Of a DNA stretch of 19,337 bases, positions 6,309-19,145 are shown piece after piece (the first letter of the stretch is position 1; each line of letters starts with the position of its first letter). This DNA comes from Fibrobacteria bacterium (GTDB lineage Bacteria > Fibrobacterota > Fibrobacteria > UBA11236): NCBI GenBank assembly GCA_043732185.1, contig JAYTHY010000135.1, forward strand, positions 1 to 19,337. The letters are read 5' to 3'. A program made the translations under genes and the position numbers. Under the pieces are notes generated by a model. It did not search any database, was not told the DNA's origin, and was given only the letters and a program-made list of their open reading frames with translations.

Positions 6309-7628
6309 CTATAATGGGTTGGGATTGTTCATGATGCCTATAAATAAAATTGCACCGGTTTGTTTTTCTGTAATGGCATAGAGATAGGGCCGATTCAAGC
6401 GCAATACGGGAATGGGTTCTGCTTTAGGGGAACGCCCACTAAAATGCATCATTGTAACGGCAACAGCGGCGGCTTCGCTGCCTTTCTCATTGGTTTCAAT
6501 AAAGGATTTATGTACCACCCTTCCGATAAAAACAGATTCCGCCTTTGAAATGCCGGTAAAATTTGCTTGGTTCCGAAATGCAATTCCCATGCCCATTTTT
6601 GTGAGGACATTTTTTATTTCATTTTCGTAGGAAACCTTTATTGTATGTTTGGGCATGTAAAACTTGATATAGCGGTGTTCAAGCTTGGAAACCTTTTGGG
6701 TCCAAGAATCTGCGGTAAGTGATTGCGTCAGGGCAAGCAAAGGTTTGCCTGGTTTGGGCAAAGCAACTACCATGGAGAAATGGGAATTGCCGTAAGGAAT
6801 GCGAGCCCATTGGGCGGTGCTGTCGTCTAAATAATCCATTTTATCATTGCGATGTAGAAAGGCTGCCTTGGTGGTTCGATGAAGGGTGGCATGGGATGTA
6901 TTGGAATCTGCGTAAAGGTTAAAGTTGGCGGTTTCTGTAGAGTTGCTTTCGAATTTTTGGGTCCATTCACCTTTGAAATAAACGGCATTGCATATTGCCA
7001 TGATATCTGTGGGTTCAATTTTATCGAGAACGATTGGGATTTTTCCGTGTGTTTTTTCATTGGCCCAACCATTGATTACAGTCAGGGAATTTTTCGAATT
7101 CGAAAAATCTAAAGGTTGAACCAAAGCATTGTAGGTTGCCTTGTTCTGATTGAGGAAATCGGGCTCTGATTTAAGCATCTTGTGATAAAAAATAGCATTG
7201 GCGATTTCCATTTTAACGTTGGAATCGGCATGGAGCATTGCGTTTTGCAGCCAAACCATTTGTTTAGAAACCATAGCTTGGGACATTCCAGCCCAACCCA
7301 AAGCCGCAGCCATGGAATCCGACGTGCTGGACTTGGCACCATTCCAGGCCATACCCAGGGAAATCTGTAAACTAAGCGGCGAGATGAATTGATTTTTGTC
7401 GACGGATTTCGCTAGCAGGTTTTCAAGGAATCGAAATGAAAACGTTTGCTCTGCCCGAATTAGATTTCCATTGCTTTGAATCCACTCTTTCAAATTTGCA
7501 GGTGTTTCTAAAATCCTGGGCATGTTATTCGATTTGATTTCAGCACTACGGCCTTCACAGTTTGAAAATAAAATTACTGCGCAAAAAATGAGTTGGCCAA
7601 AGTTTTGTTTAGAAAGGCTAAAGTGCAC
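6309..7628 (-). CDS. Serpin family protease inhibitor, probably exported or lipoprotein
   Basis: NQFISPLSL, INGWANEKTHGKI, NAVYFKGEW, hinge EKGSEAAAV, signature LNRPYLYAITEKQTGAILFIG; GTG start with AAGGA RBS; possible lipobox FSNC. Confidence 0.93.
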   Translation of the reverse strand: MHFSLSKQNFGQLIFCAVILFSNCEGRSAEIKSNNMPRILETPANLKEWIQSNGNLIRAEQTFSFRFLENLLAKSVDKNQFISPLSLQISLGMAWNGAKSSTSDSMAAALGWAGMSQAMVSKQMVWLQNAMLHADSNVKMEIANAIFYHKMLKSEPDFLNQNKATYNALVQPLDFSNSKNSLTVINGWANEKTHGKIPIVLDKIEPTDIMAICNAVYFKGEWTQKFESNSTETANFNLYADSNTSHATLHRTTKAAFLHRNDKMDYLDDSTAQWARIPYGNSHFSMVVALPKPGKPLLALTQSLTADSWTQKVSKLEHRYIKFYMPKHTIKVSYENEIKNVLTKMGMGIAFRNQANFTGISKAESVFIGRVVHKSFIETNEKGSEAAAVAVTMMHFSGRSPKAEPIPVLRLNRPYLYAITEKQTGAILFIGIMNNPNPL

Positions 7629-12188: not shown

Positions 12189-12662
12189 ATGGCTCCTTCC
12201 GTTAAAGTTGAACACATCAACCCTTTCATATCGGCCACGGTCGAAACGTTTTCAAGCATGTTGAAAACCAAGGTTGTTCCCGGTAGAATTTTTCTGGTGA
12301 AAGGCTCCAATCTTCATCATGATATTTCCGGCATCATCGGCCTTAGCGGAGGTGCCAAGGGAACCATCACCCTTAGCTTTCCGAGGTTGACGGCAGTTAA
12401 AACCGTATCCGCATTCATCGGTGAAAAAATCGTCACGATGGATGATACTGTAAAGGACGCCATTGGAGAATTGGCGAACATCGTAGCCGGCGCTGCCAAA
12501 AAAGATTTAACCCAATTTAAGATCAGCATTTCCTTGCCCACGGTAATCATAGGTGAAAACCATGAAGTACAAGGCGGCAAGGAAGTGACACCCATGGCGG
12601 TGCCATTCGAATCTCCGTTAGGAACATTCTGTCTCATCGTCGGTTTCCAGAGCGAGCTTTGA
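12189..12662 (+). CDS. cheX: Chemotaxis phosphatase CheX (copy 1)
   Basis: HINPFI, DISGIIGLSG, catalytic ExxN DAIGELANIVAG, ISLPTVIIG; GAGG RBS. Confidence 0.92.
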   Translation: MAPSVKVEHINPFISATVETFSSMLKTKVVPGRIFLVKGSNLHHDISGIIGLSGGAKGTITLSFPRLTAVKTVSAFIGEKIVTMDDTVKDAIGELANIVAGAAKKDLTQFKISISLPTVIIGENHEVQGGKEVTPMAVPFESPLGTFCLIVGFQSEL

Positions 12663-12665
12663 TTA

Positions 12666-13136
12666 GTGTCGTTATCCATTCGGTCTGAACATATCAATCC
12701 CTTTATTATTTCAAATATGGAAACCTTCAAAAAAATGCTCGGCATGGAAGCCAAACCCAGCAAGGCCATGCTCAAAACCCATTCCACTTTGGACTATGAT
12801 ATTTCCGGGCTGATTGGATTATCCGGGAAAGTGATCGGTTCCGTAGCAATGTGCTTTCCAGAGGCATCTGCCATTGCCATCTGCAATAAGTTCATGACCG
12901 CGGAATATGAAAATCTGCACGAGGACATCCTGGATGCAGTTGGTGAACTGGTCAATATCGTAGCCGGCAACGCCAAAAAAGGACTGGCTGAATTCGATAT
13001 AGAGATCTCCCTGCCTAGCGTGATCGTGGGTCACAATCATCGTATTGTCGAACCCAAAGGAGCGCTTTCCTTTGTCATTCCTTTTACTACGCTGCTTGGT
13101 GGTTTTCACATGGGTGTGAGCCTAAAAGTCGCCTGA
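12666..13136 (+). CDS. cheX: Chemotaxis phosphatase CheX (copy 2)
   Basis: HINPFI, DISGLIGLSG, DAVGELVNIVAG, ISLPSVIVG; GTG start 3 nt after the copy 1 stop. Confidence 0.92.
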   Translation: MSLSIRSEHINPFIISNMETFKKMLGMEAKPSKAMLKTHSTLDYDISGLIGLSGKVIGSVAMCFPEASAIAICNKFMTAEYENLHEDILDAVGELVNIVAGNAKKGLAEFDIEISLPSVIVGHNHRIVEPKGALSFVIPFTTLLGGFHMGVSLKVA

Positions 13137-13174
13137 AACTTTAAAGAGTAAATCCGTACCGAAAGGAAAATCCC

Positions 13175-13537
13175 ATGAAAATCCTACTAGTTGATGACTC
13201 CACAACCATGCGCCGCATCCAAAAAAATACTTTGGAAAAAATAGGTCACACTGATGTTACTGAGGCTGGAGATGGGCTTGAGGCCCTGGCCAAACTGGCT
13301 ACAGGCGGGTTCGAGTTGGTATTGATGGATTGGAACATGCCTAATATGACCGGAATCGAGGCGTTGAAAAAAATCAAAGCGGACCCTGCTATAAAGCATA
13401 TACCCGTGATCATGGTGACTTCGGAATCTGAAAAAACCAGAATTATGGAAGCAATACAAAGCGGAGCGGCGAATTATGTGGTAAAGCCGTTTCAACCGGA
13501 AACGCTGGCCGAAAAGATCAATTCCATCAAGAAATAA
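13175..13537 (+). CDS. cheY: Single-domain response regulator CheY
   Basis: ILLVDDSTTMRRI, MDWNMPNMTG, PVIMVTSE, NYVVKPF; AAGGA RBS. Confidence 0.92.
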   Translation: MKILLVDDSTTMRRIQKNTLEKIGHTDVTEAGDGLEALAKLATGGFELVLMDWNMPNMTGIEALKKIKADPAIKHIPVIMVTSESEKTRIMEAIQSGAANYVVKPFQPETLAEKINSIKK

Positions 13538-17108: not shown

Positions 17109-17264
17109 CTATTTGAAGTTTTGAAATTGACGTGGGCTGACCGTGTTGTATAGCCCGTAGTGGGTTAGGCCCTTGTGCGCCTTGTCATCAAAAGAGTAGG
17201 CGTTAATGCGTGGACGGGGCTGCGGCTTTGGGGCGAGAATTTCTTCGATGGTGGGTTTATGCAT
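17109..17264 (-). pseudogene. Truncated 5' remnant resembling a GIY-YIG/T5orf172-type restriction endonuclease-helicase
   Basis: MHKPTIEEILAPKPQPRPRINAYSFDDKAHKGL matches my recollection of that family's N-terminus, which continues LKVGQT; similarity stops near 17166; ATG overlaps the yhcG stop. Confidence 0.6.
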
Positions 17265-18474
17265 CGTTGCGGTCGTTGCGGTCCTTGAGGGCGGTCTCAA
17301 GAAGCCTTCGCTTTTTTTCGATCTCTAGACGGAGTTGTTCTTCCGTTGGCAGGCAAAGCATGTATTTGGAGGCGAAGATTTGTTTGCGATCCTTCAGCAC
17401 CGAGTAACGGGCTACGGTCTCGTTCTTCTCCGTGCAGAGAATAAGCCCGATGGTCGGGTTGTCATCCGGAGCCGCGAAAATCCCATCATGCATCCGAACA
17501 TAACCGTCCATTTGACCGACATCACCATGGGTCAATTCGCCAACCTTCAGGTCAATCAGGAGATAGAATTTCAGGCGGCAGTGATAGAAGACCAAGTCGA
17601 TGTAGCGGTCCTGCTCCTCGATGCGAATATGCTTTTGCCGTGCAACGAAGGCAAATCCATTGCCCAGTTCCAGTAGAAATCGTTGCAGGTGGGTGATAAT
17701 GGCCCGCTCTAGATCCGATTCGTGAAAGGCCGCTTGATCCGGTAGTCCCAGAAATTCCAGAACATAAGGATGCTTCAACGCATCAACAGCTGAAACAGCC
17801 GCTATCGGCAGTTTGCGCCCATCGGCTAGCATTTTCTCTGGATGGCGGCTTTTGAGAATTCGTTCGTAATAAAAAGACTGTATCTGCCGTTCCAGAGTGC
17901 GTTTGTCCCACGCGCCTGCGACAGCCTCGCGCTCATAGAAATCGCGGGCCTCGATTGTGTCCACTCGCATCAGCGCGCGGTAATGCGACCAGGAGAGGTG
18001 GGGGGAGAATGCCTTCGGCAATCGGTCGCCAGCTTGGGAAATATTCTTTGTCAGAGCCAATTTTGTGCCCACCGGGCGCAGTTTTGATGACGCCTCGGTT
18101 GATTCTCTTCCCGTTGGGTGGAGAATTGGCAGTTCCAAAGATTCTCCACCCGTTGGGTGGGGAATCTTGGACCGGTCTTGAAAGGTTAAGTAGAACTGCT
18201 TGAAATACCACAGATTTGTGGTGGAAAATCCCTGCCCGTACCGCTCGGTCAGCTTTGCGGAAAGAGTTTCCACGAGTCGTTTGCCATACTCGGCTCTCTC
18301 CTCGCCACCCTGCAATTCCTGGATGATCTCGCGTCCTATCAACCAGTAGGCCTGCACCATGTTGCCGTTTACAGCCCTGACAACATTGCTCCGCGCCTGC
18401 TCGAGAATGGAAACAACGCGCCCAAAGAGCGCATCTGGTTTTTTCGCGGAATTTTTCCGATTTGGTTTTGTCAT
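17257..18474 (-). CDS. yhcG: YhcG/DUF1016 PD-(D/E)XK nuclease-domain protein with an expanded variable insert
   Basis: VRAVN..MVQAYWLIGREI, YGQGFSTTNLWYFKQFY, LSWSHYRALM, PYVLEFLGL, FLLELGNGFAFVARQ, IDLVFYH..IDLK, GQMDGYV, IGLILC. Confidence 0.93.
   Translation of the reverse strand: MTKPNRKNSAKKPDALFGRVVSILEQARSNVVRAVNGNMVQAYWLIGREIIQELQGGEERAEYGKRLVETLSAKLTERYGQGFSTTNLWYFKQFYLTFQDRSKIPHPTGGESLELPILHPTGRESTEASSKLRPVGTKLALTKNISQAGDRLPKAFSPHLSWSHYRALMRVDTIEARDFYEREAVAGAWDKRTLERQIQSFYYERILKSRHPEKMLADGRKLPIAAVSAVDALKHPYVLEFLGLPDQAAFHESDLERAIITHLQRFLLELGNGFAFVARQKHIRIEEQDRYIDLVFYHCRLKFYLLIDLKVGELTHGDVGQMDGYVRMHDGIFAAPDDNPTIGLILCTEKNETVARYSVLKDRKQIFASKYMLCLPTEEQLRLEIEKKRRLLETALKDRNDRNDA
18020..18165. 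repeat. In-frame array of palindromic units inside yhcG (centres 18153, 18114, 18072 and degenerate 18033)
   Basis: 18101-18126 and 18140-18165 match at 23/26 nt; ATTCTCCACCC-GTT-GGGTGGGGAAT and TGTGCCC-ACC-GGGCGCA are hairpins with 3-nt loops; spacing 39/42/39 nt. Confidence 0.85.
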
Positions 18475-18515: not shown

Positions 18516-19145
18516 CTACTCGCGCACATAGCGCAAGTGTGTCGCAGTTGGACTTTCCACCACCTTGTCAATCCGGAATTGCGATACGGACTCCTGTAAA
18601 TTCTCGAAGAGGCGCCTTCCACTCCGAAACAGGACTGGCGCTAGGGCAATTTCGAGCTCGTCGATGGCTCCAATGTTCAAGTACTGTTGGATCACATCCG
18701 CGCCGCCTGCGATCCGAATATCGCGACCGTTCGCAGACTCTCGCGCCTGCCTGAGGGCACTTTCCGCACCGTCGTTGACGAAGTAAAAGGTGGTACCGCC
18801 CGGGCGGACCCAAGGTTCGCGCTTCACGTTGGTCAAGACGTACACGGGTGTGTGGAACGGGGCCTCCTCCGGCCAAGCGCGCTCGCCCTGATCGAACATG
18901 CGCTTGCCCATGATGTTGGCGCCAATGCGTTCCGTGGTTTTCCGGAGCATGTCATTTACCGTGCCAGTCTCTCCCCCGGGGCCCATCTTGAGGTTATCGC
19001 GGAAGTACTGTTGTTTGATTATCCAGGCCATCAGCTTACCCCACTTTGCGCCCCAGTTCTTGTACATGGGATTCTCCATGGTCATTCCTTCCGGGGCCAT
19101 GTAACCGTCTAGGCTTAGACCGATGTTAACGAATACCTTGCTCAT
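18516..19145 (-). CDS. Dihydrofolate reductase-like / RibD C-terminal domain protein
   Basis: GLSLDGYMA, IMGKRMF, PFHTPVYVLT, IRIAGGADVIQQYL..GAIDELEIALAPVLF; GAGG RBS. Confidence 0.92.
   Translation of the reverse strand: MSKVFVNIGLSLDGYMAPEGMTMENPMYKNWGAKWGKLMAWIIKQQYFRDNLKMGPGGETGTVNDMLRKTTERIGANIMGKRMFDQGERAWPEEAPFHTPVYVLTNVKREPWVRPGGTTFYFVNDGAESALRQARESANGRDIRIAGGADVIQQYLNIGAIDELEIALAPVLFRSGRRLFENLQESVSQFRIDKVVESPTATHLRYVRE

Follow-up and report, generated by a model that had tools for sequence, protein, structure and literature searches.

The window, by which is meant the whole stretch of 19,337 nt that was analysed (contig JAYTHY010000135.1, assembly GCA_043732185.1, from a Fibrobacteria bacterium), carries near its right end a yhcG/DUF1016 gene with Pfam matches to PF17761 (E 1e-41) and PF06250 (E 6e-55), that is, DUF1016_N and YhcG_C. 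The gene lies on the minus strand behind a RibD_C gene and contains an array of four units, three of them with significant dyad symmetry. Its features are as follows.

17257..18474, minus strand: yhcG/DUF1016 gene, 405 aa, with a predicted ParB-like DNA-binding N-terminal domain that is split by the array, then a PD-(D/E)XK nuclease
18190..18231, minus strand: codons G82-Y95, predicted recognition helix; by covariation, S84 goes with base pair -5, T86 with -6/-5, and W89 with -7
18140..18166, no strand: unit 1 (centre 18152-18154), 11/12 pairs, p=0.0013
18101..18127, no strand: unit 2 (centre 18113-18115), 9/12 pairs, p=0.011
18059..18085, no strand: unit 3 (centre 18071-18073), 8/12 pairs, p=0.0011
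18020..18046, no strand: unit 4 (centre 18032-18034), decayed, 5/12 pairs, p=0.26, not significant
17977..17988, minus strand: codons S163-R166; R166 covaries with base pair -3 and residue 163 with -2
17899..17904, minus strand: codons K191-R192, covarying with base pairs -2 and -1
17329..17784, minus strand: PD-(D/E)XK nuclease domain (aa 231-382), NucS/EndoMS-like, with D293, D308, K310, Q321, and Y325 present
18516..19145, minus strand: RibD_C gene, upstream and co-oriented, ending 41 nt before the yhcG start; context, outside the element

A preliminary description of the window had pointed to four in-frame peptide units in this gene, and their positions, the spacing of their centres (39, 42, and 39 nt), and their common codon phase were all confirmed. 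Its statement that each unit is an inverted repeat in the DNA holds for units 1 to 3, scored as pairs of 12 against synonymous-codon shuffles, the symmetry of unit 4 not being significant on its own. One arm of unit 1 is, as described, complementary to one arm of unit 2, while the G-T pair ascribed to unit 1 is G-T on the plus strand and C-A on the coding strand. The strand of the array folds better than shuffled versions of it (z about -3, as DNA or RNA), and Rfam gave no match for the array. Allowing up to five mismatches, the window units were found nowhere else in the source genome, in which dispersed copies of the palindromes were likewise absent except in yhcG genes and yhcG debris. A contig from another study crosses the window array without gaps, differing from it at 28 of 1128 nt.

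The neighbours of the window gene are RibD_C and VOC-type genes, and no partner of the CRISPR, integron, or DGR type (integrase, Cas, RT) was found in a scan of five proteins that the window encodes at and around the locus; nor is there a sigma-70 consensus match between the end of the RibD_C gene and the yhcG start. The earlier label of a defence-linked nuclease is borne out in so far as the protein matches PADLOC PDC-S02 (E 1e-135), a defence candidate label, and two of its source-genome paralogs sit in a type I RM locus, but not by the genes on either side of the window copy; the term 'S02' is absent from the main text of 10.1101/2024.01.29.577857. The nuclease motif of the window YhcG is intact, D293 and K310 being invariant in 110 sequences. 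An exact-word search of viral contigs with the window protein gave no match, whereas a yhcG paralog and the family alignment do find matches there, and the family occurs both in viral contigs and on 518 plasmids. Elsewhere in the window, a 20-bp perfect AT-rich palindrome (7089-7108) lies inside the ORF at 6309-7628, which by its motifs we take to be serpin-like, and two similar ORFs of 156-157 aa stand with a response regulator at 12189-13537, presumably a CheX-CheX-CheY-like set.

The palindrome is a family-wide feature of YhcG. In a set of 254 distinct genes with a readable helix (30 rows having been skipped for gaps, and one row coming from the unpublished genome G011, on which no other claim rests), the first unit forms at least 10 of 12 pairs in 200 genes and at least 9 of 12 in 228, the background for the former threshold being 3 in 37,348 same-phase positions elsewhere in the genes. 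The source genome has six yhcG paralogs and six sites: the five other frames each contain a different palindrome at the same site and in the same phase (three with 11/11 pairs, two with 9/11), and each half-site pair with its AATT flanks occurs only in its own gene. Altogether, 63 distinct perfect half-sites were counted among 94 genes. When units were defined in 78 close homologs by a skeleton that leaves the five variable pairs out of account, the arrays comprised one to eight units with a spacing of 39 nt in 143 of 184 intervals, an R-N-Y centre in 241 of 262, and 25 different perfect alleles. Palindromes also occur as remnants. A region of yhcG debris in the source genome (C124:14400-15350, equivalent to L118:5404-6344), downstream of two intact yhcG genes in the type I RM locus, contains three more, and three non-cognate palindromes just outside the gene at locus L083 are probably relics of other yhcG alleles; among such flanking copies, seven of nine match the site of the neighbouring gene at no more than 4 of 7 positions.

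That symmetry is polarised along the array, as had been proposed for the window alone, is a general property of the 78 related arrays, in which the mean number of pairs at the five variable positions declines from rank 1 to rank 4 (4.36, 3.66, 3.31, and 2.78), the cross-gene null being 2.12. First units are perfect at the variable positions in 42 of 78 cases (null 4.4%). Units 1 and 2 are related, the left arm of the one and the right arm of the other pairing perfectly in 21 of 71 arrays against a null of 3.8%, and units 2 and 3 are not related beyond the null (0-1 of 58). Plain tandem duplication was accordingly rejected, the linkers differing by eye and only units 1 and 2 being related, and so was cassette insertion at unit centres, as there is no nesting (first left arm with last right arm in 5 of 71, null 2.7%). 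Hybrid units, both halves of which are known alleles, exceed a point-mutation null in three comparisons (9/64 against 4%, 4/20 against 1.6%, and 2/8 against 0.5%). Mismatches on the coding (mRNA) strand comprise 22 GT+TG and 28 AC+CA family-wide, or 14 and 16 in distinct first units; there is hence no preference for G-U by which an RNA hairpin would be favoured, and that candidate, which also lacks an Rfam match, was rejected. The arrays are not hypervariable between near-identical copies: two pairs show no unit differences at all, and two arrays differ at 8/189 and 11/357 positions, comparable to the 32/600 and 33/600 found downstream.

The sequence of the arms can for the most part be predicted from residues of the protein encoded by the same gene, so that the earlier formulation of a conserved hairpin geometry rather than sequence could not be upheld. 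This was first apparent when 134 genes were sorted by palindrome and the upstream helix G82-Y95 was seen to change with the arm sequence. Four rules were then fixed before 160 new loci were fetched; filtering (at least 9/12 pairs, duplicates and the G011 row removed) left 210 genes, of which 99, with a helix unseen in discovery, formed the held-out set, counts being taken at positions where both arms agree. Each of the four rules held in these genes: W89 goes with T at -7 in 5/5 (other residues 25/87), E89 with C at -7 in 13/13 (1/79), K/R89 with G at -7 in 32/36 (9/56), and R86 with G at -6 in 25/25 (7/71). Rules added later, after the new data, are aromatic 89 with T (27/27), D84 with G, and A/P86 with T at -5. 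A further rule fixed in advance, relating L at residue 93 to the outer bases, did not divide the genes clearly; nor could Q89 be assigned a clear base, or base pairs -4, -8, and -9 a clean reader residue.

A whole-protein MI-APC scan of 191 genes returned W89 for -7 (z 11.7), T86 for -6 (7.4), and T86/S84 for -5, and, unexpectedly, residues encoded downstream of the array: R166 for -3 (7.2), K191 for -2 (7.3), and R192 for -1 (6.4), with S163 also given for -2. The corresponding counts are 139/139 for R166 with C at -3 and 171/171 for R192 with C at -1, and residue 191 sorts base pair -2 into K with C (75/77), V with A (32/37), L/I with A (16/16), and T/S/A with G (37/38). In protein-DNA recognition, arginine and lysine commonly pair with G, glutamate and aspartate with C, and aromatic or aliphatic side chains with the methyl group of T. 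The observed pairings fit this standard chemistry, and the fit was counted in favour of the gene reading its own operator. The preliminary description had left room for an ordinary chance palindrome with no covariation in homologs; covariation is present, and the description's notion of an exchangeable module at the DNA level, general to YhcG, is supported, self-recognition being what we infer from it.

Among the 26 low scorers of the family set, 11 retain the palindrome, six in another frame (L142, L144, L145, L219, L278, and L133, where the other two frames yield unrelated peptides) and five with a 2-bp centre, and all 22 arm checks in these 11 genes fit the rules, which argues that it is the DNA site, not the peptide, that is kept. 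The group with a 2-bp instead of the usual 3-bp centre between its half-sites (L099, L147, L148, L254, and L279), still on code, may have a different dimer geometry.

Linkage contributes to the covariation, and several controls bear on how far. On a FastTree backbone tree built without the reading residues, phylogenetically independent pairs fall the same versus the opposite way at 16.5:0 for aromatic 89/T, 14.8:1 for K/R89/G, 6:0 for E89/C, 14.8:0 for R86/G, 12.5:0.5 for A/P/Q86, 5.9:0 for R/K166/C, and 8.3:0 and 9:0 for the residue-191 classes; D84, K191, and R192 offer too few such pairs. Of nine off-position controls, one is significant (aromatic 89/-6C, p=0.008) and eight are not, and on a short tree of the N-terminal part only, no independent-pair test is significant. 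The rules hold per arm in 99 units that were found from their position only (some 30 being weak or wrongly placed) and across 5-10 inner-triplet subfamilies, and R86 pairs with G whichever of the six Arg codons encodes it. Non-clonal genes that have a helix in common show no extra synonymous identity elsewhere and only a small local excess (0.57 against 0.47 at the helix). Prediction with clusters left out at 60% identity succeeds at -7 in 131/169 (baseline 66), at -5 in 150/179 (87), and at -6 in 112/185 (85); at 50%, the test gives no gain on baseline at -5 and -3 and is uninformative, because 185 of 191 genes form one cluster. Arm covariation remains after conditioning on one to three residues (-8, 59 against 52), and so does that of the centre-flanking pair (98 against 83, p=0.0003), in units partly selected on symmetry; either the code falls short of the full set of pairings, or some process that symmetrises the arms is at work as well.

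Applied to whole arrays, the code separates the leading units from the rest. In 76 arrays, the rules of a gene's own helix are obeyed in 91-94% of cases by unit 1 (a partly circular figure), 67-77% by unit 2, and 33-39% by units 3 and beyond, the null with the helix of another gene being 30-46%. Only units 1 and 2 are thus cognate to the code of their own gene, later units lying at chance level, and the extra copies look like mostly out-of-date sites. The window array conforms to this. The gene-downstream arm of its unit 1 is the commonest half-site for the window's helix type, and its other arm deviates at -7 in a way that recurs in 5 of the 13 genes with this helix. Unit 2 combines one cognate half-site, again the commonest for this helix, with a half that matches another allele. 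In unit 3, both arms show G at -6, as in genes of the R86 type, and the unit is probably an obsolete site; in unit 4, one arm is identical to an allele that other genes carry in perfect form. Since the palindrome bases change with the DNA-reading residues of the same gene, each gene appears to have a private lock and key.

Helix and site are exchanged jointly. Loci L004 and L123 differ at only 4/600 nt downstream, as against 41/210 upstream and 8/36 in the unit, with both helix and site changed. In E. coli, where the yhcG of K-12 comprises three units at 39-nt spacing, with a further, non-coding copy past the stop, two of 12 records contain a foreign helix-plus-array tract (nt 243 to about 400) that differs at 63 of 150 nt, the remainder showing 0-5 differences per 50 nt, and its site fits the new helix. 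In E. coli B and O104:H4 (L157 and L158, about 1906 to 2370), the nuclease half has been replaced from the outer edge of unit 3, a state found in 723 genomes; the replacing ORF of 101 aa is labelled 'transposase' and has no Pfam match, and the DNA-reading helix and the sites remain. Other E. coli copies of yhcG are truncated or frameshifted, and an O157-type loss of 78 nt has its ends outside the palindrome centres. Exchange boundaries fall at palindromes in three cases, namely L004/L123, the E. coli foreign tract, which ends in the right arm of unit 3, and the B/O104 replacement. The non-coding palindrome after the E. coli stop (L151:6971-6995, with equivalents in L152-L163) does not fit the K-12 helix, and shows a compensatory double change in two of nine records and a G/C flip of the centre base in four. 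Together with the residual arm covariation, this compensatory change suggests that template-switch correction may add to selection.

AlphaFold2 predicts for the window protein a long helix (15-55) and helices 60-79, 85-97, 162-169, 174-186, and 191-199, followed by the nuclease, with the array disordered (pLDDT 44-51, residues 111-150). The N-domain of a single-unit paralog was modelled with a pLDDT of 93, and the top ranks in two programs went to the DNA-binding domains of ParB, Spo0J, Noc, KorB, and SopB (PDB 6s6h, 1vz0, 7ol9, and 1r71 for ParB, Spo0J, Noc, and KorB), albeit with weak scores (Z 6.8 and 6.4, rmsd 4.5 over 102 residues; Foldseek E 0.05, prob 0.99).

Taken together, each palindrome is probably an operator read by the YhcG of its own gene, with portable autorepression of the nuclease as its probable use; that a YhcG dimer binds the palindrome in double-stranded DNA is, on the covariation, very likely. 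Such an operator would have AATT-type flanks and a 3-bp R-N-Y centre that separates two half-sites of 8 bp each. The ParB-like domain would read the outer five pairs through the helix encoded just upstream of the array (residues 84, 86, and 89), and the inner three through residues encoded just downstream (163/166, 191, and 192). The bound dimer may act as a transcriptional roadblock that limits the amount of nuclease, which would suit a gene often found close behind unrelated genes and unable to rely on a promoter of its own. The upstream context fits such a roadblock: among homologs, 120 of the 150 genes for which enough upstream DNA was available follow a co-oriented long ORF, 66 of these within 60 nt, the upstream ORFs (called mechanically) belong to 69 families, and the window gene has its short gap and no promoter match. 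Because both lie within about 100 bp, lock and key would travel together by recombination, and new specificities would escape cross-repression by resident paralogs, displaced operators decaying at the 3' end of an array that, being a disordered loop, the protein could tolerate.

The covariation speaks just as well for a different use of the same self-binding, in which the nuclease would sit inactive on its own gene as on a tether and be released when that DNA is lost or degraded, by element loss or phage attack, the DNA serving as antitoxin in addiction or abortive infection. The intact nuclease motif, the PADLOC candidate match, and the presence in viral contigs and on the 518 plasmids agree with this, as does the enrichment of YhcG next to invertible RM genes (odds ratio 17.4) given in PMC9881135. 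One or two sites would, however, titrate very few molecules, and the replaced nuclease half and the broken copies in E. coli indicate that loss is survivable, a K-12 deletion strain having moreover been used in PMC2672614, and we regard such a guard function as rather unlikely. A bolder version, in which reading residues and site, side by side in one codon string, form an orthogonal lock-and-key series, the gene itself being DNA antitoxin or integrity sensor that fires on DNA loss or degradation and the array a fossil record of past specificities, is likewise considered rather unlikely. YhcG might instead nick or cut its own gene for recombination, mobility, or allele exchange in the manner of homing. 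The three exchange boundaries at palindromes, the excess of hybrid units, and the association of YhcG with IntF, IntS, and PinE (PMC2672614) speak for such cutting; yet the units are unchanged in near-identical copies, the ends of the O157-type loss avoid the palindrome centres, the nesting expected from insertion at unit centres is absent, and crossovers just beyond the site would be enriched simply by selection for a lock that fits its key. Self-cutting is therefore considered improbable.

Two further readings were weighed. Were only the shape of a hairpin or cruciform kept, by template-switch correction, with the link to helix residues a matter of linkage, then the residual arm symmetry beyond the known residues, the compensatory double change and centre flips of the E. 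coli non-coding copy, and the superior folding of the strand would all be accounted for. The covariation, however, is specific to residue and position, chemically canonical, and robust to tree control, codon changes, and frame changes, and it involves residues flanking the array on both sides; arms that disagree, moreover, nearly always have one on code (14 with one on and 11 with both off, beside 361 with both on). This makes a shape-only origin very improbable, and template switching may still contribute, by transferring a new base from one arm to the other. The recoding of a specificity loop, as the preliminary description had it, draws on the units being in frame and, in most genes, sharing one phase, and on arm changes many of which are non-synonymous. 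It is scarcely credible given an array predicted to be disordered and varying from one to eight units, covarying residues that flank it, and the homologs in which the palindrome persists in other frames or spacing, six of them with unrelated peptides.

If the favoured reading of a self-read operator is correct, a DNA target is predicted for a widespread family of unknown function that includes E. coli K-12 yhcG, and the residue-to-base code is testable by single mutations. Each gene would be a matched protein-site pair, making public genomes a natural library for the rules of HTH recognition and a natural source of orthogonal repressor-operator parts. It would also follow that a hitchhiking gene can carry its own regulation within its reading frame, and that DNA-binding specificity can switch without a broken intermediate. 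New here are the residue-to-base code and the proposal that the array combines current with obsolete operators. No description of palindromes in yhcG was encountered in the openly accessible literature searched, which consisted mostly of listings and the beginnings of abstracts, nor in the available parts of PMC9881135, PMC2672614, PMC1189080, PMC7383237, PMC3430580, PMC7967276, PMC4316617, PMC13734603, 10.1101/2024.01.29.577857, PMC2996958, and PMC6649704.

Several known systems share individual traits with the yhcG array. PARCEL repeats are likewise tandem, variable in number, in frame, dyad-symmetric, and found in mobile genes, but are 25-residue amphipathic repeats of membrane proteins, with no DNA-binding partner or code in the abstract (PMC2996958), in contrast to the 9-codon unit and 39-nt spacing in a soluble nuclease seen here. 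Rickettsia palindromic elements, which also lie within intact reading frames, are, according to PMC4316617, selfish inserts of 100-150 nt in many unrelated genes, whereas the YhcG unit is 27 bp long and confined to one fixed site in one family, its half-site pairs and flanks occurring only in yhcG genes. The mitochondrial coding palindromes of Nematomorpha similarly place complementary arms inside protein-coding sequence, though of up to 284 bp, in conserved protein regions, and with no protein reader in the abstract (PMC6649704). Unlike arrays of the CRISPR, integron, or DGR type, the units of YhcG differ from one another and show no hypervariability between near-identical copies. EndoMS has a different N-terminal domain and cuts mismatches. 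Of the YhcG nuclease domain, predicted to be PD-(D/E)XK and NucS-like, NucS/EndoMS (PDB 2vld, 5gke) is the best fold match (Foldseek E 4e-4; Z 8.8, rmsd 3.2 over 89 residues), in agreement with the DUF91 link of the family made in PMC1189080.

The closest parallel is with the ParB family, for which PMC7383237 describes contacts with parS by the recognition helix and helices 6 and 8, and a switch of specificity by four residues. The three covarying patches of YhcG appear to be laid out similarly to these contacts, specificity in both cases coming from a few residues of the recognition helix together with later helices, and YhcG shares with ParB, Spo0J, Noc, and KorB on parS, NBS, and OB a palindrome with 8-bp half-sites (same source). 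By eye, and with no residue-level alignment behind the equivalence, the G-F-S-x-x start of the YhcG helix and its S/T163-x-x-R166 resemble G170-K171-S172-R173 and G201-x-x-R204 of ParB. YhcG differs in having no CTPase (ParBc) domain, as judged by Pfam, the model placing one long helix at 15-55, and no ParA neighbour at the window gene, in being fused to a NucS-like nuclease, and in the 3-bp separation of its half-sites. In Bacillus, parS is found inside spo0J; the site of YhcG has codons for the residues that would read it on either side, and every gene has a site of its own. By this analogy, the palindrome would work like a ParB-type operator, and not as part of a partition system.
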